Position numbers and translations under genes: made by a program. Positions 10,807 to 35,832 of a stretch of 43,062 nt of DNA are shown piece after piece. Below the pieces are notes generated by a model that saw only the letters and a program-made list of their open reading frames with translations, had not been told where the DNA came from and did not search any database. The DNA lies in IMG/VR virus record IMGVR_UViG_2663763326_000007; one strand, 5' to 3'. This stretch comes from a virus. Taxonomy: Duplodnaviria; Heunggongvirae; Uroviricota; Caudoviricetes. Positions within the stretch are counted from its first letter, which is position 1; the number at the start of each line of letters is the position of its first letter.

Positions 10807-11483
10807 AATCGTTTACCTGTTTTTGGGTCTACGTGGACATTACCTTTCACGCGACCGCGCAAATCTTTCTCAAAAAAGCCCATAAAAACAGGGCCAATGT
10901 TTTCAAAAATATAATCATCGATAGCATCCTCCAGCGCGTCGTGCACAGGTACGCGAGCCTCTTCGATTCCTCCGCGATCCAGTCGAATCCAGACACTTTT
11001 CGCACCGTAGCGTTTCGCTACGAATGAATCGGGCCAACTCATCATCGCCAGCCCTGCACTTTTGGGTGTAAAAGTTGCCCCTCTAGCGCCTTTTTTGGTT
11101 TTCAAAAACAGGCCGGTCTCAAGATCGCGAGGCTGTTTTTGCCTCCGTGGATTTTGTAATCGCCCCTTTAGCTCAGATACCCGGAAATCATTCAGACCGT
11201 ACCAGAGCTTGGCGCTGCTCAGGTCTCCTGCCCCTTCTTTTGTAAAATTACGGCGCTTAATGAACGGCTTGATTCGTTTATCTACGGCCTTATGATTTTT
11301 AGCTGCCAGTGCAGTCAAAATCATTCCTGCTGAAATTCGGTGCATATGTTTTGCAGTTCGGTTCAGCGCCCTGTTGTATACCATTAACATTTGATGTTGC
11401 GTCGCGCTGATTTCGACTCTGAGCTGCTCCAGCGCCGAAACATCGATATCGAACATCTGCGCGTTACTACGTAAATCGGCCAC
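10803..11483 (-). CDS. Putative virion morphogenesis / tail completion protein
   Basis: 226-aa ORF overlapping its neighbours by a few bases inside the late operon. Confidence 0.35.
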   Translation of the reverse strand: MADLRSNAQMFDIDVSALEQLRVEISATQHQMLMVYNRALNRTAKHMHRISAGMILTALAAKNHKAVDKRIKPFIKRRNFTKEGAGDLSSAKLWYGLNDFRVSELKGRLQNPRRQKQPRDLETGLFLKTKKGARGATFTPKSAGLAMMSWPDSFVAKRYGAKSVWIRLDRGGIEEARVPVHDALEDAIDDYIFENIGPVFMGFFEKDLRGRVKGNVHVDPKTGKRL

Positions 11484-11514
11484 GGTTCCCCCTTAAGTGG
11501 GACCGAGGTCCCAC

Positions 11515-11895
11515 TTAGTATTTTGAATACTCGCTGTTTTCGCTGGACGTGTGAGGCTCTAAAAAAATATTCGTGAGCCCTGTGCCATCAGGTTGAGGCT
11601 CTTTAACCACGTAATCGGTCCAGCCAGACCAGGTAACAGAGCCGTCAGGTTCGATGCTGCGCTGCTTTGGAACCTGGACGACGTCACGCGCAACAACGCC
11701 AGCGACGTCGTCCGAGAGCGCCGTCAGGCTCGTTACTGTACCGGTAATAAAACCAGCGTGAGGAACGTCAACGCGCGCGTAAGGCTCGTTGAAAATAGCG
11801 ATAATGGGGTCGGTTTTACCGCGTAATTTAACGGGCCGTCCCCACTCACGGATCATCTCCTCGTCGCCGGCCCGGAGGTCATCGTAGTAGCTCAT
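11515..11895 (-). CDS. Head-tail joining protein (lambda FII-like)
   Basis: 126-aa ORF directly after the FI-like gene in lambda head-gene order. Confidence 0.4.
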   Translation of the reverse strand: MSYYDDLRAGDEEMIREWGRPVKLRGKTDPIIAIFNEPYARVDVPHAGFITGTVTSLTALSDDVAGVVARDVVQVPKQRSIEPDGSVTWSGWTDYVVKEPQPDGTGLTNIFLEPHTSSENSEYSKY

Positions 11896-15075: not shown

Positions 15076-16649
15076 CAGTTACCTCCCCAGCCGTTATCGT
15101 TGGTATTTGAGGGGTGAGATACAGACCATGACGGTTCGCTCAGCCCCATTTCACGCCGGCGCTGAATTTCGTATTCCTGCTGCTCCATAACCTCCTCGTA
15201 ATCCTGTCCCTGCAGCGCCAGTTCGTTCTGATACGTGCTGAGGCCAGTTGTGATGCGCATGGCGCTCTCCTGAACCTCTTTCAGCCCATCAATCGCCATG
15301 CGACCAGCGCCGATCCAGAGCGCGTTCGTCCAGGAGTTCCGCGCCTCATAAAACGACCGGACAGCTGAGCGTGGCAGGGTGATAATTCCGCGTGCCAGCG
15401 CCTCTTCAAACCAGCAGCAGAACATCAGCGACGCCTGTCGCGCGGCGATAAAACGTCGACGCCCCATGAAAAATCGCCAGCTGACGTTAGCACTGGCCCG
15501 GGCGCTGGAGTAACTGACCTGGCTGTAGTCCCGGCTAAGTTCTTCGTATGACGCGCCAACGCCAGCTGCAACGTAACGCAGGAGTGATTTTTCCAGTGAA
15601 CTAAAACCAGCATCAGCATTCTGAGCGGTCTGTAAACTGAGTTTGTCGCCGGGATGCAGGTGGGGAACTTTCACACCACCGAGCTTGATATTTGCGCCGT
15701 TGTAGTACGTCACGTAACTCTGAATAAACGAATTCAGCGGGTTCGAGTCGATATCAGTACCCGCGCCGGCGATATATTCAAACGCCTGCTGGCTGTCGAG
15801 CTCTGATTCGATTGTCGCGGCATACATCGCCTTCACAATGGCGCTCTGCAGTTGTGTTTGCTGCAGTGTGTCGAGCATTTTCAGGCGCTCCATGACGCTG
15901 TAAAAAATATTGTCCCCGCGGGTCTGTCCGTCCTCGAGCGGCTCGAATATGTGGATGAATGCGTGTCTGCCGCTGCTGAGCTGTGCTGGGATACGCCGGC
16001 ATTTACCGACTCCGCCGAGAGGGTAAGTATCCTCGGCTATCCAGTACCCGACCGCGGCCCCGTTTTTATCGATATCAACACCGGCGCGGCGAAATTGAGT
16101 GTCAGCTGCGTAACCCGGATTTCGAATCCGTTTCGGTGAGACCATTTTGAATCGCGTCCGAAAAACGCTGCCGGCACTACTCTCCCAGACTGGTTGTACG
16201 CAGGTTTCACCGTTGAAAGCGTGAGTAGCCACGCCCTCGCGGATCATCATTGTGAACGTCCGTTTCCGCTCGATATCAATCGTGCAGTGAGGGTCCTCGG
16301 CGTATTCAGTCCACGCTACCTCGACGTCACGCGCCAGCGCCCTGGCGTCCTCGCGAGATATGCCGAGGTAACGCCAGTTAGGGCGATAACTCAACTTAAA
16401 CAGATTGCCGACGATATGATCCTGGTGCAGCTGCACGGCGTTCGACGCGACGCCGTTATTGCGAACGAGATCGTCTGCTCGCGCGTTACCGCGATAAAAA
16501 TTCGGCAACAGTGCTGCGTCGGCGCTCTGCTGTGGTGCGTTCCAGTCAATCAGCTGGCCACCGAAACCGGGACCGCCGCCGTTATACCCCGCGTAACGGC
16601 GTAGTGGCGTTTTACCGTCAGGCCCGAGCAGCTGCTGCGGAGCAGTCAT
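15075..16649 (-). CDS. Portal protein (lambda gpB family)
   Basis: 524-aa ORF between the gpW-like and protease genes; size and order match lambda B. Confidence 0.85.
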   Translation of the reverse strand: MTAPQQLLGPDGKTPLRRYAGYNGGGPGFGGQLIDWNAPQQSADAALLPNFYRGNARADDLVRNNGVASNAVQLHQDHIVGNLFKLSYRPNWRYLGISREDARALARDVEVAWTEYAEDPHCTIDIERKRTFTMMIREGVATHAFNGETCVQPVWESSAGSVFRTRFKMVSPKRIRNPGYAADTQFRRAGVDIDKNGAAVGYWIAEDTYPLGGVGKCRRIPAQLSSGRHAFIHIFEPLEDGQTRGDNIFYSVMERLKMLDTLQQTQLQSAIVKAMYAATIESELDSQQAFEYIAGAGTDIDSNPLNSFIQSYVTYYNGANIKLGGVKVPHLHPGDKLSLQTAQNADAGFSSLEKSLLRYVAAGVGASYEELSRDYSQVSYSSARASANVSWRFFMGRRRFIAARQASLMFCCWFEEALARGIITLPRSAVRSFYEARNSWTNALWIGAGRMAIDGLKEVQESAMRITTGLSTYQNELALQGQDYEEVMEQQEYEIQRRREMGLSEPSWSVSHPSNTNDNGWGGN

Positions 16650-22087: not shown

Positions 22088-22380
22088 CAGATAAACTCCT
22101 CATCGCGCCAGATAGCCAGTGTTCTGAAAACTCCCTCAGCGTGCATCAACAACAATGAGTCGTGCTCGTAATCCGTTTTTGTACGTCCGTCGATGGCATC
22201 GTGACACGCACTGCAGGCGATAGCGCCCTGCATATCGTGAGGTTTGATGGCTGTGCCGCACGTTCCGGCGAGACGATAATGAGCCAGTACGCTGGTTTCA
22301 GGATTGTGATTGCACACACCGGGGATACGCACAGTACAAGCGCGACTGCGTGCAGCTTTTCTCAGGTCGATTTTTTTCAT
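22087..22380 (-). CDS. Nin-region protein, Cys/His-rich (DUF1364 / YbcO-like putative nuclease)
   Basis: 97 aa with ..CTVRIPGVCNHNPETSVLAHYR..CSACHDAIDG..; sits just upstream of the Q-like gene as in DLP12-type prophages. Confidence 0.45.
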   Translation of the reverse strand: MKKIDLRKAARSRACTVRIPGVCNHNPETSVLAHYRLAGTCGTAIKPHDMQGAIACSACHDAIDGRTKTDYEHDSLLLMHAEGVFRTLAIWRDEEFI

Positions 22381-22973
22381 GATGTGTAATCCAGCAGCTG
22401 CGCGGCGGCATTTTCAGCGGCCTCCTGAGAGGCAAATGTGCGGAACAAAATATAATTCCACAGCACATCTAAAACGGCTGAATACAGTTGACCGAACTCA
22501 AGATCGTCCATCGCTGCAAACGAGATTGAACGAGGTACGCGCATCAAACTGCCGTCTGGCATCTGATGAACGTCATAAAACCCAGCTTCCATAATCGCCC
22601 ATGCGCGAAACGCCTCGAACGACTTCACCGCACTGATACTCCCCGCGCGCTTTTCCGACTCATCGAGAAGATACTGATCAGCCAGCTCTGCCATGACATC
22701 ACCGTGTCCACCGTAATACGCCAGTAACTTAACGTAGCCGTGAACCAGTTCGCGCTCCGCAGGAGAAATAGCCCCTCCGGACGGATGCCAGTAATCAAAG
22801 CCCAGGTTGAGAAGTGAGAAAAATTTACGATGAAACGCGGGATTACGCGCCTGTTTGAAATCTGCATACACAACAGCACCTGGTTTGACTCGTTCAGTCA
22901 ACCAGCGTTGCGTGTCTGGTGTCGCGGGTATTAGCGAACCGCCGGATACCCTGATAAATGAATGCTGCGCCAT
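22377..22973 (-). CDS. Conserved phage protein of the nin-like region
   Basis: 198-aa ORF overlapping the next gene by 4 bp (operon coupling). Confidence 0.4.
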   Translation of the reverse strand: MAQHSFIRVSGGSLIPATPDTQRWLTERVKPGAVVYADFKQARNPAFHRKFFSLLNLGFDYWHPSGGAISPAERELVHGYVKLLAYYGGHGDVMAELADQYLLDESEKRAGSISAVKSFEAFRAWAIMEAGFYDVHQMPDGSLMRVPRSISFAAMDDLEFGQLYSAVLDVLWNYILFRTFASQEAAENAAAQLLDYTS

Positions 22974-23050: not shown

Positions 23051-23230
23051 TTACGCGTCAGGGGGTGTAATAGTATATCCAGCTATTTCTGCCAACTCGA
23101 GAAACGCCATCAGGCTGGCAATCCGCTCATCATCGGTCAGAACACGCACACCAACGATGTGTCCGTCCTTACGCTTGATAACAGCCCGGCATGTTTCCGG
23201 TAGTTCGCCTATAGATTCTTGAATATTCAT
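23051..23230 (-). CDS. Small 59-aa protein behind a LexA-box promoter (candidate SOS-inducible antirepressor or induction factor)
   Basis: ATG at 23228..23230 (MNIQESIGELPETCRAVIKRKDGHIVGVRVLTDDERIASLMAFLELAEIAGYTITPPDA) preceded by GGGGGAAG; promoter and LexA box directly upstream. Confidence 0.5.
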   Translation of the reverse strand: MNIQESIGELPETCRAVIKRKDGHIVGVRVLTDDERIASLMAFLELAEIAGYTITPPDA

Positions 23231-23249: not shown

Positions 23250-23269
23250 ACCTGTATATTTATACAGTA
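23250..23269 (-). promoter_or_regulatory. LexA (SOS) box overlapping the -10 of a sigma70-like promoter
   Basis: ACCTGTATATTTATACAGTA has the CTGT-N8-ACAG core with an AT-rich spacer, 3 mismatches to TACTGTATATATATACAGTA; minus strand has -35 ATGACA, 17 bp, -10 TATAAA inside the box, 22 bp before the ATG. Confidence 0.7.
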
Positions 23270-23343
23270 TTTTATGGCATTTGTCATAACGCCAAATACA
23301 ATGAGGGAATAATGAACAATTATATTCACGTCGTGAATTTTAT

Positions 23344-23374
23344 TAAACGGTTTTATAGGGGATTAAACCGTTTA
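23344..23374. repeat. Perfect 10-bp inverted repeat (hairpin) between the upstream gene and the LexA-controlled promoter
   Basis: TAAACGGTTT-(10 nt)-AAACCGTTTA starting 7 bp after the stop of the 23381..24022 gene. Confidence 0.35.
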
Positions 23375-23380
23375 TGGTCA

Positions 23381-24022
23381 TTATTTATCACTCCTGTAAA
23401 TTGGAATTAACCATTTTCTAATCGTCGACGCTGCAGGTGGGTCAGAGTATTTCGCCACAAAAATACCGGATATGTATTGCACGCCACGCGATAATGGCGC
23501 TGTCGGGTTTTCAGTAAAAAAACGATCAGCCAGTTCAATGGCTTCGCTTTTTAATCTGTGCTGTGGTCGTCCTCCGCCCTTTGTTCCCAGGTATCGCGCC
23601 AGTTGTTTGAAACGGTAGGCGATGATTAACGGTCGCATCATCATATTGAAAAAATCGCGGGCATCGTTGTCAGCGCCTTGCGCTATCAACAGTGCAAAAA
23701 ACAGATACGGGATTATGTACACTTCAGGAGATATACGAACCCGTTCACAAGTTGGTGGAGCCAACTCAATAAGTAAGTCAGCCAGCGGATTCCCCTTTTC
23801 TCCACGTTTGTAATAGCGATACAGCGGCCCGATATCAAGTTCACTCACGTCGATTTCAGGATGCCCGGCAACGACTGTACGTATCTCTTCTGCCAGAGCG
23901 TCAAATATTGCCCCGGTCCGTTCAAGATAGAGCCTCCGGGTCGAACCGCGATCATCCAACGCCCGTAACATATCTAACCGGCTAACGAAAGTTTCAGGCC
24001 AGTCCTCATAGAAGGTTTTCAT
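23381..24022 (-). CDS. Hypothetical protein (about 213 aa), accessory gene
   Basis: Start set at the internal ATG 24020..24022 (MKTFYEDWPETF..) preceded by GAGGT; no family recognised. Confidence 0.45.
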   Translation of the reverse strand: MKTFYEDWPETFVSRLDMLRALDDRGSTRRLYLERTGAIFDALAEEIRTVVAGHPEIDVSELDIGPLYRYYKRGEKGNPLADLLIELAPPTCERVRISPEVYIIPYLFFALLIAQGADNDARDFFNMMMRPLIIAYRFKQLARYLGTKGGGRPQHRLKSEAIELADRFFTENPTAPLSRGVQYISGIFVAKYSDPPAASTIRKWLIPIYRSDK

Positions 24023-24265
24023 AATTACCTCGAATAATAAAAACTGCACTATTTGCACAATTTATTATTCGTTTTCACGCCGCTGAGTTCTATAAAAAAG
24101 AAAAAACCTCCGAGGCAGGGTTTTGTTATGGCTCGTTAAATCATCATCCAACTTTTTAGACTGAACGGTGATACTTGCAAATATTTGAAAATATGGGCTG
24201 GAACCCTATCTTATGATGTGCCTGGTAATTTATATTGTTGGGTCTTTATATCATGAGGAATCACT

Positions 24266-24499
24266 ATGGGTACGTTAGGCAACCAGCCGTGCAGAAGTCG
24301 TTATGAGTTCGATGATTTTAATTTAGCCAATCGAGCTGCGGCTCTTACTAAGTTAGCAAAAGAAACTGGTGTATCGGTGGATACCTTAATCAAACTTGAA
24401 ATTGCTATGCAACTGAATCGGCTCAACTCCATCCTTATCGAAAACGGTGACAAGATGGACGAGAATCTGGCAGGTATTGGCGAGATACTGCAGAAGTGA
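24266..24499 (+). CDS. Hypothetical small protein (77 aa), possibly helix-turn-helix
   Basis: GAGGAA before the ATG; ..AALTKLAKETGVSVDTLIKLEIA.. looks like a helix-turn-helix; followed by a hairpin. Confidence 0.4.
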   Translation: MGTLGNQPCRSRYEFDDFNLANRAAALTKLAKETGVSVDTLIKLEIAMQLNRLNSILIENGDKMDENLAGIGEILQK

Positions 24500-24505
24500 G
24501 AGTAG

Positions 24506-24535
24506 CCCCTCTTCTGAGGGGTTGCACATTTAAAA
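24506..24535 (+). terminator. Putative intrinsic terminator
   Basis: CCCCTC-TTCT-GAGGGG stem-loop 7 bp after the stop codon, followed by TTGCACATTTAAAATATT. Confidence 0.4.
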
Positions 24536-24897
24536 TATTAAGGGCGGTCTTCTTCACGTACACAGTCACCTGGTCGAATCGTTCACGCATACTGAGTACA
24601 AAAAATCTCAACGATAAGATCAGGTTAGACCTGTATTTTCCAGAAACATATAGACGCCTAAAAAAACACTAAACTCATGATTATCATGTATGTTTTTACT
24701 GGAAACATTGAACCATCCACAATACAGCGTAAAAAGCAAGCAATTCACAAGATTTTAAAGTGATTTATCTGGAAGACTTTACTACTAACAGTTAATATCG
24801 TACCAGAAGTGCAGAATTTGCACTTTTACAGGAATGTGGTACGGAACATGCTGTCTATATTTCAACCAATAATCGTAATGCAGTAACTGGAGGAGCT

Positions 24898-25386
24898 ATG
24901 GCTACCAACCCAAGAGAGCACGCCCGGCGAGTGCTGGACACGTTCTGGTGCGGGCGTGGTTTCCCTGTTGATCCAGCGAAAATTGCTCACGACATGGGAT
25001 TAGATGTTTTTATTACCGATCTTCCTGGGAAAGTTTCTGGCGCACTGATTAAACAAAAAGATCAAGATCCAGCGATCTTTCTAAACAGTGATGACAACAA
25101 AGTTCGTCAACGTTTTTCATGTGGGCATGAGTTGGGGCATTACATCGCCCGGCAAGCATCGCATAGCGATGAATATGAGTACGTTGATTTACGTGGCGAA
25201 ACCGCAAGCGCCGGAACGCATCCTGATGAAATTTTTGCAAACAAGTTCGCAGCAGAACTTCTGATGCCGGTAGATGAGGTCAGAAAACTGCACGCTGACG
25301 GTCAACCAAGTTATATAATGGCGCATTATTTTGGCGTATCTGACGATGCGATGACTTATCGTTTAAAGAACTTGAGGTTGGGGTAA
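24898..25386 (+). CDS. ImmA/IrrE-family zinc metallopeptidase (M78-like), stand-alone peptidase domain
   Basis: HEXXH motif in ..FSCGHELGHYI.. and a downstream Glu in ..NKFAAELLMP..; GGAGGAG ribosome-binding sequence. Confidence 0.7.
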   Translation: MATNPREHARRVLDTFWCGRGFPVDPAKIAHDMGLDVFITDLPGKVSGALIKQKDQDPAIFLNSDDNKVRQRFSCGHELGHYIARQASHSDEYEYVDLRGETASAGTHPDEIFANKFAAELLMPVDEVRKLHADGQPSYIMAHYFGVSDDAMTYRLKNLRLG

Positions 25387-25395
25387 CGCTTTAAA

Positions 25396-26001
25396 ATGCC
25401 ATCGGATGACGATTTTAACAGCCGTTTCAAACAGGAAGTAGCACGCAGACTGAAGGATTCCCTCAACCTACACCGTCAGTTAGCAGAAGAGGTTGAGCCG
25501 GAGGACGATGAAACTCCGGTTCAGTCTCCTGACGAAGCTTCACCTCAGCCAAAGGTTTCGCACGCCCCCAAAAAAACGGCTGTCCGTATTCGCGGAATAG
25601 CCAGAAAAAGAGCTGCCGAAGCTCGCAAAATGGCTGTAGCTGCGTCTAGCAAAAGAATTCCAACTGCTACACCCTCTCAACAAGTCACCCGTACTGAGAG
25701 TAAAATCTTGACCGAGTTCACATCTGTGAAACAGGTGAATTCACTTGATACCGAGCATGAGCGCAAACAACTCAACAACAAAGATTTTGAAGCAGAAATC
25801 GCTCTAAAAAAACGATACGGGAAATGGTTCCTGATTATCCTTGCTTTCCAACTTCTGATAATGAATGGTGTATTTATTGCCGACGGCGCAGGTAAGCTGG
25901 AATTTGAGGATTTAACACTACAGTTGTACATGGGCGGTACTTTGACAGAGGTATTCGGCCTCGTGCTGGTCGTGACAAAATACCTTTTTAAACGCAAGTA
26001 A
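25396..26001 (+). CDS. Membrane protein with charged, low-complexity N-terminal region and two C-terminal transmembrane helices
   Basis: Starts 10 bp after the peptidase stop; hydrophobic segments ..WFLIILAFQLLIMNGVFIA.. and ..GGTLTEVFGLVLVVTKYLF.. Confidence 0.55.
   Translation: MPSDDDFNSRFKQEVARRLKDSLNLHRQLAEEVEPEDDETPVQSPDEASPQPKVSHAPKKTAVRIRGIARKRAAEARKMAVAASSKRIPTATPSQQVTRTESKILTEFTSVKQVNSLDTEHERKQLNNKDFEAEIALKKRYGKWFLIILAFQLLIMNGVFIADGAGKLEFEDLTLQLYMGGTLTEVFGLVLVVTKYLFKRK
25930..26001 (+). repeat. 72-bp direct repeat, copy 1 (3' end of the membrane-protein gene)
   Basis: ATGGGCGGTACTTTGACAGAGGTATTCGG..CGCAAGTAA recurs at 29352..29423 with about 6 mismatches. Confidence 0.85.
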
Positions 26002-26463
26002 CTCTCTCGGTCCAACAGTCTTTCGAAGGCCCTGATCAAAGGGCCTTGATAAATTAGCAGTGCGTTGAAAACAGATAGTTATTCCCATCAGTTCCAACGT
26101 AATACACATCAAAAAAATCACCATTCTTTTGCTCTAACGTCAACACCTACCCTTAAAAAAATAATTCTCCAAGAATGAGAAAGTTATTGTGTGTATTAGA
26201 TAAGATATGAGCTGACACATCTATGGCGTGGAGCCAAATTTAATATGACAGTCCGCTCTGTGCCATAAGCGGACTGTCAATAAACAGATTCACTTGTAAA
26301 TCTTGAAGCTATACATATTTACTTTCAATGATAAATAAAAGAACTATCCAAAAATCACTGAGAGCATATTTTAACTAACCCTCCGCTACTATTAACATAA
26401 ATTTCACCCAACCATAATTAAATTGATACATATAGCAACTTACCTTGATACGAATCATCTGGG

Positions 26464-27162
26464 TTATATTTTTCCATATTTTTTTCCGTCAAATCGAATC
26501 ATGCCAGGATCAAGAAAATTAATTAAATCGATTAACGCGTGCTGTATTCTGATTAGCCTTTCTTTATAAATTCCGATATCTCTTGTCATATTTATCACTT
26601 CATTGTTTAAATCTAAAAAAAATGGCTCATTGATAAAGCAATTTTCCTTTGTGAAACTGCCGTAACCTATGCAATCAAATCCAGTATCTGTTGATATCAG
26701 CATCTTTTCTGCAATAGCTCTCTGCTCTCCTATGAAAAACATAAAATACTGACCAAAGACGTCTGTTTGGATTAATGAGTTAATATTGTTCTGTAATCTA
26801 ATAAACTCCCTCATTTTTTTATTTTTTTCTAGGCTAAGGTATTGAATGTCTATGCGGGCAGCTTCTGTCCATGCAAAAAACTGGGAAAAAAGAAAAACAG
26901 TATTGTTGATAACATAATCTTGTTGGCGCTTATTCCCATTATGATAAAACTCTTCAATGAACCCCAATTCTAATATATTATAAATACGGCTTTGTAAGTC
27001 TGAAGCTGAGCGAATTAACGGTTCAATATAGTACTGATGTTTTCTCCTTACATCCAGTGATTCATTGAGCTTGTTTATTCTATTCTGATTATAAGTAGAT
27101 ATAGCAATAGAGATTATAGCTATTGCACCACTAATAAAGCTTGAAATTAATGCCGTACCCAT
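26464..27162 (-). CDS. Low-GC protein with N-terminal transmembrane helix (232 aa), function unknown
   Basis: ATG at 27160..27162 with AAGGA 7 nt upstream; N-terminal ..LISSFISGAIAIISIAISTY..; Asn/Ile/Lys-rich, far more AT-rich than the flanking phage genes. Confidence 0.5.
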   Translation of the reverse strand: MGTALISSFISGAIAIISIAISTYNQNRINKLNESLDVRRKHQYYIEPLIRSASDLQSRIYNILELGFIEEFYHNGNKRQQDYVINNTVFLFSQFFAWTEAARIDIQYLSLEKNKKMREFIRLQNNINSLIQTDVFGQYFMFFIGEQRAIAEKMLISTDTGFDCIGYGSFTKENCFINEPFFLDLNNEVINMTRDIGIYKERLIRIQHALIDLINFLDPGMIRFDGKKYGKI

Positions 27163-28349
27163 CTAAAAGTCCTTTGATTCTTGCTTGGTTAACAAAATGA
27201 CATAATTTTATTTAATGCCATAACAACTTAACAATATATCATAATATGATTATTATGGTGTAGCTTGTCGCATCTACGCTCCATTACAAACAGATGTAAG
27301 ATATAACCTATATGTTTTAGCCAGCAAATTCGAAAGCATTCAAAGTAGTCTCATCGAACTCTCGAAACCCTATGTCTTCGGGTATAAAATATTTAAATCC
27401 ATTTGCATAATATCGACTCATGTTTATTATATTCTCCCCATTCACCATTAAGATTTGACATTATTTTCAACAATCGGTTATTGCAAGATTGAAATATATT
27501 TTTACTTGACACAATATTCCATGTAGCCCAGCGATTCGACTTACCCCCAACTATACGGACAATCTAAATTAAATCGATGATTTTTTGATACATTCTCCTC
27601 TCTCCATTACTTTATGTTTTTGTTCCCCAAAAATACCTTGCTCTCTAAAAAATAATTGTTCTTTAAGTTCAAAATCGAGATCTACATGAGCGTTAGATAC
27701 AAAGCTAATATGTTGAAATGTCTTTCCCCCCCCATAACGGCATTGTTATCTAAACTATGTTACACAAATATAATATTACCCTTTCAACGTAATCCAAGAA
27801 TAAGATTAATGCCATTATATATATCATAAATATGATATTTTGTATATTTTTATCATTTAGCCTTGATTGTACTAGGTGTACTCTCAACGAAGTAGGGAAA
27901 GTCTGTTCCTCGCTCACAGCTGCCCTTCAGTAAGCGAAAAAATGCCTACTCGGTGCCATATACAGCCATTGTTATTAACAGCAGGGAATAATTCAAAACT
28001 GAAATTAAATATCTACCTTTTACAGTAGAAATAGTTCCTCCAGGACACTATCCATTGCCGGGCACAATCACTCGGGGTATAACGATATAAAATATGTTCA
28101 TGATAGTGCAGGTTCGTATATTAAGTTCAGCAGCGAAAACATGCCTTACAGGTTTCCGGTTTTGGGAGCGTCGTTACAGGATCCTGCGCATACCGTTCCC
28201 ATCTGTTGAATTAAAGGTTTCACAGCCTTTGCCGATATCACCTTTTACCTTACCTGTGATGCGTTCAGTGCTCAGCGTTGTTTACTGTAGCTCTCGGGAC
28301 TGATTACAGACCGCGTCTTAAAAACCAATCCTTACTCTAAAGGGAATTC

Positions 28350-29273
28350 ATGAGATTAAAATACTCAGTACTCTTACTCGCCATTGCCCTTACAGGCTGT
28401 GATAACAAAAAAGATGAGATCGGTTGTTCTTCGGAAATAACCCAGTCAGCTCTCATGGATTTATTAAAAAAATCTGCTTATGAAGGACTCTCTGAACAGG
28501 TCGATAAATACCCTGATGTCACTAATCAGACCAAACGAAGCACACTGGACAAGATCAAACTAGCCATCTCTGAGATCTCCACAACATCAAGTGACACGGG
28601 CAGCACAATGAAAACTTGTGAAGGGACCGTGACGATGACTCTATCTGCGAACGAGTACGTCCAGCTTTCAGATGCTTACAGAAAGAATTTTAATCGTAAT
28701 CTCGATAAGCAAATGGAAAGCCTGTTTTTGGAGAACAACGCAAACGCCTTTTCAAAACGTATCACCTACACCGTGCAGGCGACCGACGATCAGAAAAACG
28801 TTTTTGTAAAAACCTCTACTGATAATCCGATATCAGTGGGCGCCGCTTTACTGACATCGCTTTCCATTATCACCCCGATCGTTGAGCAGCAGAAAATCCA
28901 GCAGGCTAAGGATGCCCAACAGAGTCAAATTGAAGCGGAACAACAGGTGCAACTCAGGGCGCAAGAACAGGCTAAGTATGAGGCGGAGAAGCAAATAGAG
29001 AGACAGGCACAACTTCAGCCGCAAAAAGCTGACAACCTTGATCAGTCCCGAATGGCATTTGCGAATGCCGACTCTGATTTGAGTACCGTCTGGAGCAAGT
29101 TAACCCCGGCGAAGAAAAAAGATTTGCTGCCTTCTCAGCGTCAGTGGATCAAAACTAAGGATGCTATGTGCGGTAAAGTTTCAATGCAGGGAACAGATGC
29201 TGAAGTCAAGAAAATGGTCGACTGCCAGACGCAAATGACCCTTTCAAGAATCGCTTTCCTCAGAAACCAATAA
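28350..29273 (+). CDS. Lipoprotein with C-terminal DUF1311 (LprI-like) domain
   Basis: Signal peptide with LTGC lipobox; Gln-rich coiled linker; C-terminus ..LSTVWSKL..QRQWIKTKDAMCG..MVDCQTQMTLSRIAFL.. fits the remembered DUF1311 Cys/Trp pattern. Confidence 0.55.
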   Translation: MRLKYSVLLLAIALTGCDNKKDEIGCSSEITQSALMDLLKKSAYEGLSEQVDKYPDVTNQTKRSTLDKIKLAISEISTTSSDTGSTMKTCEGTVTMTLSANEYVQLSDAYRKNFNRNLDKQMESLFLENNANAFSKRITYTVQATDDQKNVFVKTSTDNPISVGAALLTSLSIITPIVEQQKIQQAKDAQQSQIEAEQQVQLRAQEQAKYEAEKQIERQAQLQPQKADNLDQSRMAFANADSDLSTVWSKLTPAKKKDLLPSQRQWIKTKDAMCGKVSMQGTDAEVKKMVDCQTQMTLSRIAFLRNQ

Positions 29274-29351
29274 CTGAAGTCTCCTTCAAGCTGGCGCCAG
29301 GTGTTAACCTGGTGCCAGCTTAGTCATCAAGTGCATATGTAACTGTTTTAT

Positions 29352-29447: not shown

Positions 29448-30266
29448 TCAAAATGCTGAATTAGCAACGGATATAGCCGACTTTTTCCCCATTACCATCA
29501 ATTTATCCAGTGTCATACTTCGCAGATTGTCGCTGTGGATCACCAGATACCCTGCCCGCTCAGCGATCTCTTTGAAAGCGTCAAAGGTCATCAGATGTTC
29601 GCCTTTGGCAACATGGCGCATCCCGGTCACTTTTCCATTTTTGATAGTGGTGATAAAAGAAAAATCTGGAATGGTTGGGTGATTTTCATCGAGTAGCAGG
29701 CAGTGGATGTATTCAATCGCCTCTAACATTTGCGTCTGTGACAGTTGTTCTATGTGAGAGACGGCGAAGCGTTGATGAATCATGGTGTAGGCATCGGGAT
29801 ACATCATGCCTTTCTTGCCGACCAGTATATTAACGGCATCACGCAAGGGAGTACGGTCATCGGTAGTTGTACTCCGCCTCTCTGGACGCTGGCTAAAATA
29901 ACAATCTTCCAGCTTTTCGAAAACTTCCCAGGCCTGTTCTGTTTCCAGCATTTTGGCATGGCGAGCTGCGCCGCGTTCTGTCCAGAGAATGAGGGATCGG
30001 GTATGTTTAGCAACTGACTGACTATCTGTCAGTCTGTTTTTGAAGTCGCGTAATTCATTACCTTCCAGCTTAAAAAAATGCTTTCCTACGACAAATCTGG
30101 CGATGTTGCGCTTGAAGTTTTGCTGGATACCATTTACTTCCGTGCCATACAAACTGGCAAGCAATTCAGTAGTGATGACGGGAAGTTGGTTATGATGTAG
30201 CGGAGAAAGGGATTCCGCAGATATTTGGACTGTCATCGCAGTGGCCTCACTTAGTGTTTTTTTCAT
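29448..30266 (-). CDS. Phage antirepressor / regulatory protein (Ant, ORF6N/Rha-like N-terminal domain)
   Basis: N-terminal ..PVITTELLASLYGTEVNGIQQNFKRNIARFVVGKHFFKLEGNELRDFKN.. resembles the antirepressor N-domain; start set at ATG 30264..30266. Confidence 0.55.
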   Translation of the reverse strand: MKKTLSEATAMTVQISAESLSPLHHNQLPVITTELLASLYGTEVNGIQQNFKRNIARFVVGKHFFKLEGNELRDFKNRLTDSQSVAKHTRSLILWTERGAARHAKMLETEQAWEVFEKLEDCYFSQRPERRSTTTDDRTPLRDAVNILVGKKGMMYPDAYTMIHQRFAVSHIEQLSQTQMLEAIEYIHCLLLDENHPTIPDFSFITTIKNGKVTGMRHVAKGEHLMTFDAFKEIAERAGYLVIHSDNLRSMTLDKLMVMGKKSAISVANSAF

Positions 30267-30508
30267 CACCACCAGCGACGCCAATCATCTGGTGGTGAGC
30301 TGTGCAGGGTTGGCGTAACCGGCTAAGTGAACCCGGCGCTTCCACAGAAGCCCCCACACAGCCCACCATAATGCGAATGTGGCCGTGCCTAACACATAAA
30401 AAAACCGCTAACGCGGCTATGCGTCACTTAGATATCCGGGACGCCAATCCCGGCAACCGATTTTGCGGCTGCGCGGAAACTATAGCCCCGGACTTTTTCT
30501 AAGTCAAT

Positions 30509-30730
30509 TCAATCAACTTCAAACCTCCGGTGTTCACATTCCATACACTCAACGGGAACATCATCGCGATGCAAGTCCACATATCCGACCCGCTTATACA
30601 ACTCAATAATGTCCGGTAACGTGACCAGATGTTTTTCCGGTTCCAACACCTCAGCCCGGGTTACTTTGTAATCTGAAATATAGAGCACTATCCGCCCGTT
30701 CCGTGGTAACTCCAGTTTATCGCCAAACAT
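30509..30730 (-). CDS. Hypothetical protein (73 aa)
   Basis: ORF in the leftward early operon; contains a CxxCEH motif. Confidence 0.35.
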   Translation of the reverse strand: MFGDKLELPRNGRIVLYISDYKVTRAEVLEPEKHLVTLPDIIELYKRVGYVDLHRDDVPVECMECEHRRFEVD

Positions 30731-34294: not shown

Positions 34295-34515
34295 ATGCCC
34301 AAAGCCTCTGAGAGAACGCGACAGCCAGCCTCATAGGCAGCGCCAGAGAGATTTTGCTCACGCAGTTTCGCTTTTTCTTCTTCGTACTTTTCCCATACAG
34401 AACGTGCAGCTGCGACGCGGCCATCGAATATGGGGCGGATCTCTGCAACATGTGCCGGGCGTCCATTCAGGTGCCAGCCGTTACGCCAGGTAATGCGGTC
34501 AATATGTCTTAACAT
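34291..34515 (-). CDS. Hypothetical small protein (74 aa)
   Basis: ORF between the YdaT-like and replication genes; an alternative overlapping frame exists. Confidence 0.3.
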   Translation of the reverse strand: MLRHIDRITWRNGWHLNGRPAHVAEIRPIFDGRVAAARSVWEKYEEEKAKLREQNLSGAAYEAGCRVLSEALGI

Positions 34516-34554
34516 CGGTCTTTCCTCGGTATAAGTTAAACGCTGGTCAGGCGC

Positions 34555-35031
34555 TCATGCATGGTGGTCTTGCGCAGTGCGTATCACTGCTCCTCGCGTC
34601 GCTACCAGCGCCGCTATTGCTTCGTCAATTTCCTGAATAGTTAACTCTGGCGCGAAGTGGAGATGTACAGCGTTAATCGCTTCCACCCCTTCTTTTGCCG
34701 CCAGCGTTGCCAGCAAAACGGGATCGCCCGGCGACTCCAGACGTGCCCGCCGTTCTGCGGGTAGCACGGCTTTCATCACACTGGCCAGCACCTGAGTTTT
34801 TCGGCGCGCCGCCGTTGTCTCGCCACGTAACCAGCGAAAGATTTTCTGCCGATTGTTGTTGATGGCTCTCCAGTCCACGTTGCCGTCCGCGTCCTCAAAT
34901 TCATGTAGTCTCAACTCATCATTGCGTCCCTGACTGAACCAGGCCCGGCAGATTTCAATCGTGACGAGTTCCTGCCCTGCCCTTGCCGCCCAGGTCAAAA
35001 TCTCTTTTTGTAATTCCTCTTGGTTTTCCAT
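34555..35031 (-). CDS. YdaT-like protein (cII-position regulator)
   Basis: ..NNRQKIFRWLRGETTAARRK.. and ..VMKAVLPAERRARL.. parallel Rac prophage YdaT; directly downstream of the Cro-like gene. Confidence 0.6.
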   Translation of the reverse strand: MENQEELQKEILTWAARAGQELVTIEICRAWFSQGRNDELRLHEFEDADGNVDWRAINNNRQKIFRWLRGETTAARRKTQVLASVMKAVLPAERRARLESPGDPVLLATLAAKEGVEAINAVHLHFAPELTIQEIDEAIAALVATRGAVIRTAQDHHA

Positions 35032-35089
35032 AGCGTCTCCTGTCGCTAAAAATTGATTACGCTTAATCAGATTTGGGGCTCACCAACAG

Positions 35090-35320
35090 TTAAGCTGCTT
35101 CCGTTTTAGGCAAGCTGTCATCTGGGTTTGGGTAAAGATCCGGTCTAAGATCATGAGGGGTCACGCGCCATTCAAGAGCTTCAGATGTGCGCAAAACCTC
35201 TTCACCGGGAACCCGTCCTTTGAACCAGAGGCTTACCGTTTGTGGTTTTTTCCCTAATCGCCGCCCTAACTCGGATTGACTCATTACGGAAAGAATTTTG
35301 TCTTGCAGTTGTTTATCCAT
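35090..35320 (-). CDS. Cro-like / YdaS-like helix-turn-helix regulator
   Basis: Start at ATG 35318..35320 (MDKQLQDKILSVMSQSELGRRLGKKPQTVSLWFKG..) with AAGGAG 5 nt upstream; divergent from the repressor gene. Confidence 0.6.
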   Translation of the reverse strand: MDKQLQDKILSVMSQSELGRRLGKKPQTVSLWFKGRVPGEEVLRTSEALEWRVTPHDLRPDLYPNPDDSLPKTEAA

Positions 35321-35356
35321 ATGGACTCCTTGTGTCCGCGTCATCATTACAAACAA

Positions 35357-35418
35357 TAACTGTAATTACAAATTATATTTGCAATGCTCCCTACAATTAA
35401 ACCTTGTATCCTTACGGT
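35357..35418. promoter_or_regulatory. Divergent promoter/operator region (OR-like)
   Basis: Inverted repeats ATTACA-N8-TGTAAT and TTACAA-N7-TTGCAA between the divergent genes; a similar TTACAA-N7-TTGTAA repeat lies just past the repressor gene near 35965..35985. Confidence 0.4.
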
Positions 35419-35832
35419 ATGAACACAAAAACGAAAAACATGGCTTTTGCTAGCCGACTACAACGGATTCTAAAAGACTTAGGCTGGTCTCAATCTGAGT
35501 TAGCTCGCCATATTGGGGTTACGGCTCAATCAGTTCAGGCATGGTGTAATGGGGTAACTCCAAGAAAAGATAAATTAGACAAGCTAGCAAAAGTGACCGG
35601 ATACCCTGTTCATTTTTTCTTCATGAATGAAGGGGAATATTTGGATGAATCCACACTACACCCGGGTAATTACAATCAAGAACTAACCCCGCAAGAACAG
35701 GCTCTACTGCAACTATTCAGAGGACTGCCTGAGAGCGAAAAAAATAAATTAATCAATGAGCTAAAAGAAAAAAGAGAGCACTTCGATCTACTGCTAAAAG
35801 AACTACTTGAAGCCAAAAACCAGACAAAATAG
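35419..35832 (+). CDS. CI-like repressor (XRE-family helix-turn-helix), no LexA-like S24 peptidase domain
   Basis: ..LGWSQSELARHIGVTAQSVQAWCNG.. is a classic XRE helix-turn-helix; start uncertain (no ribosome-binding sequence, possibly leaderless). Confidence 0.65.
   Translation: MNTKTKNMAFASRLQRILKDLGWSQSELARHIGVTAQSVQAWCNGVTPRKDKLDKLAKVTGYPVHFFFMNEGEYLDESTLHPGNYNQELTPQEQALLQLFRGLPESEKNKLINELKEKREHFDLLLKELLEAKNQTK

Follow-up and report, generated by a model that had tools for sequence, protein, structure and literature searches.

A DicA/Gifsy-class immunity region in a lambdoid prophage of Escherichia coli, with a LexA-controlled Rem-family small protein as its probable inducer

The three prophages Gifsy-1, Gifsy-2 and also Gifsy-3 are governed by the repressors GfoR, GtgR and GfhR, which are paired with the LexA-controlled antirepressors GfoA, GftA and GfhA (Lemire, Figueroa-Bossi & Bossi 2011, PMC3121763). 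GfoR and GtgR remain uncleaved on induction and are inactivated by their LexA-controlled antirepressors, and homologues of gfoR and gtgR, DicA and RacR among them, occur in the majority of Escherichia coli genomes (PMC3121763). The Qin prophage of K-12 has a DicA/DicC switch in which Rem, a protein of 83 amino acids (aa), relieves DicA repression 165-fold, and the signal that induces rem is unknown (Ragunathan & Vanderpool 2023, PMC10448788). Here we examine the immunity region (35090..35832) of IMG/VR record IMGVR_UViG_2663763326_000007, a stretch of 43,062 nucleotides (hereafter the window) that is a seemingly complete lambdoid prophage of E. coli. We propose, at a probability of roughly 0.72, that this is a lambdoid immunity region of the Gifsy/Qin (DicA) class which is switched by a LexA-controlled, 59-aa antirepressor of the Rem family. 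The switch concept itself is as described for the Gifsy phages in 2011, a precedent that an earlier interpretation of the same DNA (the sequence-only reading) had understated, and the points that are new here are modest. In its logic the proposed system is also like those of coliphage 186 (Tum) and N15 (AntC), where a LexA-controlled antirepressor acts on a non-cleavable repressor, although the proteins and the phage types appear unrelated.

The lysogeny repressor gene (35419..35832, + strand) encodes a protein that has a helix-turn-helix (HTH) at its N-terminus and, beyond a linker, a helical C-terminal region bearing the motif LTPQEQALLQLFRGLPESEK. Its open reading frame (ORF; 35404..35832) offers two candidate starts, ATG 35419 (137 aa) and ATG 35440 (130 aa, the RefSeq call), of which we favour the first because TKN, which precedes the RefSeq start, can be aligned with the beginning of DicA. 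The sequence-only reading had described a CI-like repressor that lacks a peptidase, and the domain content bears this out: the Pfam matches, on residues ~10-70, are to HTH families of the Cro/CI type alone (HTH_3, E 1.7e-12, residues 14-65), with no peptidase or S24 domain. The same search of the seven ORFs in the approximately 1 kb past the repressor stop returned no match, and the gene is intact in every copy with annotation shown among 474 carrier genomes. A longer, S24-bearing isoform is ruled out by the Pfam-negative downstream ORFs together with the recurrence of the intact short gene, and a hidden one is further dismissed because the protein contains no Ala-Gly dipeptide. Lacking S24, the repressor would therefore be unable to respond to RecA itself. 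Its homology extends over the full length both of Gifsy-2 GtgR (33% identity over residues 10-137, E 5e-23; tblastn and BLASTP) and of Qin DicA (31% identity, E 6e-14), and the DicA alignment takes in the C-terminal motif L(T/S)PxExxLLxLFxxLPESE, of which LxPxExxLLxLFxxLPESE is shared and the LPESE ending is common to both. Like the Gifsy proteins, it is a short (~135 aa) HTH repressor, and homology and domain content place it, by prediction, in the Gifsy/DicA class of non-cleavable repressors. The earlier conclusion that induction runs through a trans-acting factor agrees with experiments on these homologues (Gifsy, PMC3121763; Qin, PMC10448788).

Operator-like inverted repeats had been noted on both sides of the repressor gene, and their statistics confirm that description. 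At no more than one mismatch, TTACAA-N7-TTGTAA occurs at three sites in the 43-kb window (35347-65, 35366-84 and, as a perfect copy, 35958-76) against 0.12 expected, and none of 100 shuffles gave three, so that chance does not account for the repeats. A third intergenic copy (35391-35409) has two mismatches, and a weak fifth copy of the repeat lies at 35925-44. The repeat search groups four 20-nt copies, and the palindrome itself measures 19 bp; the four 19-bp palindromes are confined to the two control regions, three between the repressor and cro genes and one past the repressor gene. The three tandem copies, delimited by the repeat and palindrome searches, make up a right operator region (OR, 35347..35409) consisting of O1 (35347-65, TTACAAACAATAACTGTAA), O2 (35366-84, TTACAAATTATATTTGCAA) and O3 (35391-409, CTACAATTAAACCTTGTAT). 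These operators overlap divergent promoters that were assigned by eye: the rightward promoter PR would have a perfect TATAAT as its -10 hexamer (reverse complement of 35372-77) inside O2, and a leaderless repressor promoter PRM is possible, with a -10 of TATCCT at 35407-12 that ends 7 nt before ATG 35419.

Beyond the repressor gene, a PL-like promoter (TTGACC-17-TAAAGT, 35951..35979, + strand) holds the perfect operator, here OL1 (35958-35976), between its hexamers and reads into the early-left operon, in the direction away from the repressor gene. The sequence-only reading was right that a repeat lies just after the repressor gene; as a refinement, its location between the PL hexamers identifies it as the left operator (OL) of the early-left operon, unconnected with the end of the repressor gene. 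This promoter is predicted to drive the leader of that operon and the genes from 36843 through xis and int. Taken together, the operators have the classical OR/OL layout. As with lambda CI, the repressor and cro genes are divergent, three operators lie at OR, OL and PL lie beyond the repressor gene, and the repressor mRNA is possibly leaderless; unlike repressors of the lambda CI/LexA type, this one has neither the S24 domain nor the Ala-Gly site, so RecA-stimulated autocleavage is not expected.

Comparison with relatives further suggests that the palindromes behave as operators. In vB_SmeS_BUCT708, a syntenic but heteroimmune phage whose repressor is 29% identical to that of the window, a different palindrome (GTTAGA-N4-TCTAAC) stands at both the OR and the PL positions, at the latter together with a promoter, and from about +1 of PL onward its sequence is again homologous to the window. 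The repressor of the Klebsiella phage ST16-OXA48phi5.1 is 43% identical, and there ACAAG-N5-CTTGT flanks the repressor gene on both sides, with the same ACAA-N7-TTGT core as in the window. The relative carried by ETEC1738 is degraded, with a split terminase and an IS3 insertion; its repressor protein is identical, and its changes within O1 are restricted to the spacer. At both sites the palindromes change along with the repressor.

Divergent from the repressor, the window encodes a Cro analogue of the YdaS family (76 aa, 35090..35320, - strand; Pfam YdaS_toxin/HTH_3, E 7.7e-09; phrog_35) followed by YdaT, a CII analogue (158 aa, 34555..35031, - strand; Pfam YdaT_toxin, E 2e-15; phrog_163 'CII-like', E 7e-42), an arrangement that the sequence-only reading had recognised and that the two Pfam matches support. 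A putative YdaT operator, TTGATTACGCTTAATCAG (35053..35070), occupies the gap that separates the cro stop from the ydaT start. In the CP-933P prophage, YdaT was footprinted on TTGATT-N6-AATCAA between ydaS and ydaT (PMC9986795); the site in the window matches this sequence at 11 of 12 positions, is the sole such site in the window and is conserved at the equivalent place in BUCT708. After ydaT the early-right operon continues with a gene for a 74-aa protein, an O-like initiator gene and dnaB. Divergent cro- and CII-analogue genes in a lambdoid layout are shared with the Gifsy phages, whose CII analogue is not YdaT as it is here. With the RacR/YdaS/YdaT switch of Rac and the PaaR2/YdaS/YdaT switch of CP-933P (PMC8630535, PMC9986795) the window shares YdaS and YdaT genes divergent from a short repressor, and with CP-933P also the operator motif between ydaS and ydaT. 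Unlike those cryptic switches, the window has a repressor nearer to DicA and GtgR, with no toxin-antitoxin cargo after it.

The proposed inducer of the prophage in the SOS response is a 59-aa protein of the Rem family (23051..23230, - strand; phrog_340, E 1.6e-20), encoded 12 kb from the repressor gene. The LexA box CTGTATAAATATACAG (23252..23267, read on the - strand) overlaps the -10 hexamer of a promoter, ATGACA-17-TATAAA, and lies 34 nt upstream of the ATG, which is preceded by a good Shine-Dalgarno sequence. This near-consensus box, TACTGTATAAATATACAGG, is the sole CTGT-N8-ACAG in the window. The next gene in the LexA-controlled unit encodes a DUF1367 protein (22377..22973, - strand; Pfam DUF1367) that is 56% identical to STM1020, the 'irsA homologue' of Gifsy-2 (E 5e-82), and the order downstream of the 59-aa gene is DUF1367, DUF1364, Q. 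Because the STM1020/irsA homologue follows the 59-aa gene as it follows gftA in Gifsy-2, the 59-aa gene occupies the gftA slot, a placement that is one of the new points here. As in the Gifsy phages, the antirepressor gene thus lies outside the immunity region, carries a LexA box and comes directly before the STM1020/irsA homologue and the Q region. In BUCT708 a perfect LexA box (CTGTTTTTATATACAG) precedes a small-protein homologue of 40% identity, which DUF1367 follows; both BUCT708 and ETEC1738 retain the small gene together with the DUF1367 gene.

Two observations concern the DNA around this box. In ETEC1738 the box upstream of the 59-aa homologue (16215-16228) reads CTGTATATATACAG and is 2 bp short (N6 instead of N8), while intact IMG/VR relatives of this variant have a perfect box, CTGTATATATATACAG; the short form arose either by mutation through TA slippage or as an error of assembly. 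A second strong promoter-like site, TTAATA-16-TATAAT (23319-23346, - strand), is found some 50 nt upstream of the LexA-controlled one, with a palindrome, ATTCACGaCGTGAAT, between its hexamers. The half-sites of this palindrome are conserved in ETEC1738 (ATTCACgcgGTGAAT), and it might serve another regulator as its operator or act as a weak terminator.

Family membership connects the 59-aa protein to a characterised antirepressor. K-12 Rem falls in the same PHROG, phrog_340 (E 4.4e-21), each of the two matching it at E ~1e-20, and no Pfam match was found for the 59-aa protein. With hhalign, a profile of 61 sequences, all small members of the Rem-like family, aligned in a common register to Rem (93.7%), to GftA (75%, E 2.5e-5) and to the C-terminus of Gifsy-1 AnrP (69%). 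AlphaFold2, run on the 59-aa protein with the 61-sequence alignment, predicts a short helix, a beta-hairpin and a helix at a predicted local distance difference test (pLDDT) score of 91.6. A search of the PDB gave no relative of this small domain by sequence or by fold (best Foldseek E 0.87), and the Rem-like fold of beta-hairpin plus helix has no Pfam model and no solved structure. Among the three inducer candidates that the sequence-only reading had put forward, the 59-aa protein comes out, from its Rem-family membership and its gftA position, as the best; the Ant-like protein stays plausible as an auxiliary, and the ImmA-like peptidase, located in an accessory island and absent in relatives, is poorly supported.

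The Rem-like family was also surveyed. A homologue search with the 59-aa protein alone gave 7 close relatives, and an exhaustive profile search gave 127 representative clusters of the Rem-like domain. Upstream regions were surveyed in 74 IMG/VR loci, the phages used for comparison and the window, whose stand-alone Rem-like genes fall into 22 clusters at 80% identity. A strict LexA box lies within 220 nt upstream in 9 of the 22, against a background of 0.038 per kb, or ~0.008 per upstream interval, and DUF1367 is directly downstream in 7 of those 9. A short, full-length DicA/GtgR-like repressor was found, within the DNA stretches examined, in 13 of the 22 clusters. Rem-family genes are thereby newly tied to canonical LexA boxes in at least 9 phage lineages. 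The Rem-like domain also forms the C-terminus of proteins with Phage_pRha, Bro-N, P22_AR_N, ORF6N or KilA-N domains at their N-termini, all of which are typical of antirepressors. Its place at the end of Ant-type proteins is likewise new and offers a hypothesis as to which part of Ant recognises repressors.

The analysis shows the identities of the genes, how the operators are arranged and how far they exceed expectation, the LexA box, the families to which the proteins belong, and synteny and conservation. From these we infer a mechanism, to which the binding of repressor to operators and of antirepressor to repressor, the OR promoter assignments and the roles of two Rem-like paralogues belong as inferred parts. 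In the lysogen, the short HTH repressor would bind the 19-bp palindromes (core ACAA-N7-TTGT), three at OR and one strong site at OL, and would thereby shut off both the early-right operon (cro/ydaS, ydaT, the O-like gene and dnaB onward) and the early-left operon. Host LexA would meanwhile repress the 59-aa gene, 12 kb off, between the accessory island and the Q region. DNA damage would lead to LexA cleavage and to synthesis of the 59-aa Rem-family protein, which is predicted to bind the repressor, inactivate it stoichiometrically and remove it from its operators, so that PR and PL fire. YdaS and YdaT would then take over as the Cro and CII analogues, YdaT with its own operator between cro and ydaT. 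A 73-aa Rem-like protein made from the end of the PR operon could add positive feedback, and the C-terminus of Ant, whose translation would be gated by C4/IsrK RNA, may add a further input.

Several findings weigh against this mechanism. The strict LexA box is missing in 13 of the 22 clusters of the survey, and no LexA box is obvious in the region upstream of rem in K-12, which shows that not every member of the Rem family is under LexA control; the near-consensus box of the window differs in this from Qin, which is itself cryptic. BLASTP of the 59-aa protein found no pairwise match to GftA or to Rem, the identity to Rem lying below what BLASTP detects. The link to GftA is accordingly moderate and at profile level (75%), with the window antirepressor in the Rem branch (phrog_340) and GftA in phrog_4847. 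The SOS unit of the window lacks dinI, with which the SOS operon of Gifsy begins. The second promoter-like site at 23319-23346 could express the 59-aa gene without LexA control. Finally, the 59-aa protein, the 73-aa protein and the Rem-like domain of Ant are no closer to one another than random members of the family, so that some or all of them may be directed at repressors of co-resident prophages and not at that of the window.

The first of the two extra Rem-like paralogues, which set the window apart from the Gifsy systems, is the 73-aa protein, encoded by the last gene of the early-right (PR) operon (30509..30730, - strand; phrog_340, E 3.5e-21). Its ORF has a strong Shine-Dalgarno sequence and is unannotated in the RefSeq copy SK1144, in which no coding sequence is called between the Ant gene and the next gene, of 74 aa. 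Upstream, back to the last early-right genes, we found no promoter and no convincing terminator, and the gene is probably expressed from PR once the switch flips. Fels-1 FsoA provides a precedent for a repressor-controlled antirepressor (PMC3121763), and a 60-aa Rem-like gene in the early-left operon of Stx phages provides another.

The second is the 262-aa Ant protein, a candidate second antirepressor (29448..30236, - strand; Pfam ORF6N; phrog_4792 'anti-repressor'). Its N-terminal 137 residues, the ORF6N part, are 66% identical to Gifsy-1 AnrP (STM2616) and its C-terminal half differs from AnrP, being Rem-like: residues ~197-238 match phrog_340 (E 4.2e-12), and BLASTP aligns Ant with the 59-aa protein at E 4e-07. 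Upstream of ant lies an RNA module like P1 immI (30288..30507, - strand), whose Rfam matches are all above the gathering thresholds. It begins with a promoter, TTGACT-17-TATAGT (30507..30479), upstream of the RNA elements, followed by the a1/b1 targets with IsrK (30485..30398; isrK 80.4 bits, threshold 50; c4-a1b1 52.9 bits, threshold 46.7) and by the C4 antisense RNA (30373..30288; 75.2 bits, threshold 45), all on the - strand. The presence of C4, a1/b1 and IsrK upstream of ant recalls the c4 RNA-icd-ant arrangement of P1/P7 immI and the isrK-orf45-anrP arrangement of Gifsy-1, where IsrK turns on AnrP translation and AnrP expression induces Gifsy-1 (PMC4825925). Unlike Gifsy-1 anrP, the window gene lies after the replication genes and not after Q, and against P1 and Gifsy-1 an equivalent of icd or orf45 is not clearly established. 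Between the C4 end and the ant start a 13-codon ORF (30247-30288, - strand) and an in-frame upstream ATG for ant at 30266 are visible, either of which might serve icd/orf45-type coupling as in P1 and Gifsy-1. The recurrence of the Rem-like domain at the C-termini of antirepressor-type proteins makes Ant a credible second antirepressor under RNA control. Ant is kept as a plausible auxiliary input to induction.

Three divergent Rem-like copies in one prophage, under three different controls, are a new observation, and they admit a broader interpretation. The ~50-residue Rem-like fold may be a general, exchangeable repressor-binding 'warhead', its three copies passing three inputs that converge on repressor inactivation: LexA for the SOS response, the PR operon for a positive feedback that would make an antirepressor switch, reversible on its own, irreversible, and the C4/IsrK gate for superinfection or stress; some copies may also reach the repressors of co-resident prophages. 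We advance this generalisation tentatively, regarding it as distinctly less probable than the LexA-controlled switch itself. That the three paralogues are recent duplicates with one target is unsupported, their mutual identities of 26-33% standing against a median of 31% for random pairs of the family.

Less probable again, although the best placed of the competing explanations, is that the Rem-like proteins act mainly in trans on other prophages, the window's own repressor being relieved in another way or not being SOS-inducible at all. Gifsy and Fels antirepressors do hit non-cognate repressors, and FsoA has no apparent role in the induction of its own phage (PMC3121763); the three paralogues of the window are as divergent as random family members; and Stx phages with a long annotated CI carry an early-left Rem-like gene as well. 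Weighing the other way, the repressor and the small protein of BUCT708 have both diverged from those of the window with the architecture kept, most loci with stand-alone Rem-like genes carry short DicA/GtgR-like repressors, and a non-cleavable repressor needs at least one inducer. We consider it unlikely for the window. The Stx case itself is that of the Stx2a phage Stx2_EH2246 and its relatives, in which the early-left operon includes, ~1.2 kb past the CI gene, a 60-aa Rem-like gene (4477-4659; phrog_340, E 3.6e-22), the annotated CI being longer (229 aa). That gene resembles Fels-1 fsoA and could, by analogy, act on other prophages.

Slightly less likely still is that Ant, gated by C4/IsrK, is the principal inducer and that the 59-aa protein has a different part in the SOS response. 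The 'anti-repressor' PHROG assignment, the Rem-like C-terminus, the complete set of C4, a1b1 and isrK RNAs upstream and an N-terminal domain 66% identical to that of AnrP, whose expression induces Gifsy-1 (PMC4825925), all speak for Ant. However, the Ant/C4 module is absent from ETEC1738 and BUCT708, which keep the small-gene unit, and Ant is for that reason improbable as the indispensable link to SOS; it is, moreover, the 59-aa protein that has the LexA box and the gftA position. C4-type control holds ant off in the lysogen, and we know of no link between it and DNA damage, which counts against Ant in the principal role. In P1 and P7, C4 control acts mainly on superinfection.

The weakest proposal, that the window's ImmA cleaves the repressor linker after DNA damage as ImmA acts on ImmR and CapP on CapH, draws on an M78 peptidase with an HELGH motif and capP as its best PADLOC match, and on the HTH-linker-helical-domain layout of the repressor, a layout typical of ImmR/CapH substrates; it is very improbable, given that the gene lies 10 kb away from the repressor gene in a low-GC island, on the strand opposite to the phage operons, beside a partner that is a predicted membrane protein of 201 aa and with no adjacent HTH gene, that it is absent from ETEC1738, in which the repressor protein is identical, and from BUCT708, and that the homologous Gifsy repressors stay uncleaved on induction (PMC3121763). 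This ImmA/IrrE-family metallopeptidase (24898..25386, + strand; Pfam Peptidase_M78, E 7.7e-18; capP, E 2.4e-25) runs opposite to the phage operons. Its neighbours encode proteins of 77 aa and of 201 aa, the latter with hydrophobic C-terminal segments, so the adjacency of protease and substrate genes seen in ImmA/ImmR and CapP/CapH pairs is not found in the window. We consider ImmA a probable moron or defence module unrelated to the LexA-controlled switch.

The island in which it lies (24000-29300), between the SOS unit and the Ant gene, has a GC content of 0.32-0.43 against ~0.5 and looks like defence or moron cargo. It holds the 77-aa gene, the ImmA/IrrE (CapP-like) gene followed by that of the predicted membrane protein, a gene for a 232-aa protein with a weak match to a DRT-associated transmembrane protein (E 1.8e-05), and one for a 307-aa LprI-domain protein. 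In most carrier genomes the ImmA query has two matching places per genome.

Of 5426 complete E. coli genomes in RefSeq, 474 carry the immunity region and its surroundings (34500-36900), 415 at 99% identity or more and 59 lower, and several strains named ST131 are among the carriers listed. The prophage is thus present in ~9% of complete RefSeq E. coli genomes, and its proposed LexA wiring through a small antirepressor predicts how DNA-damaging antibiotics would mobilise it. In SK1144 it adjoins the tRNA-Leu/Cys/Gly cluster near pgsA-uvrC. Among the INPHARED phages, megablast gave no close match to the immunity region. Matches to the immunity region, the 59-aa gene and ImmA were found in 474, 444 and 452 E. 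coli genomes, respectively, and these co-occurrence counts are uninformative because nearly all copies are at least 99% identical.

The early-left operon opens with a leader of ~850 nt (35986-36842, + strand) that contains no Pfam-positive ORF. It is 71% conserved over its whole length, from the PL start, in BUCT708 (10815-11596); the ETEC1738 leader, at 99% identity, is uninformative on structure and conservation. Six copies of GG(G/A)AAGAC(C) and three of GCCTGACCAGC are among its conserved motifs. No N-like ORF lies between PL and the leader terminator. This intrinsic terminator (36425-36455, + strand) is kept by compensatory changes, and a long hairpin at 36265-36335, likewise conserved, has a variable loop and a fold z of -3.8. 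Part of the leader (36100-36271) has matches of 70-74% in phages that include SPN1S, Tyrion and mEp390, where the DNA carries no annotation, and the match in SPC32H sits just upstream of a tRNA-Arg gene. A stretch at 36321-36401 is tRNA-like, with the T-arm CCCGGTTCGATTCCGGG. As a tRNA gene it was rejected, with no ARAGORN call, Rfam scores below threshold (tRNA-Sec 19 bits, RprA 37 bits) and no counterpart in BUCT708, and may represent a tRNA cassette that has decayed.

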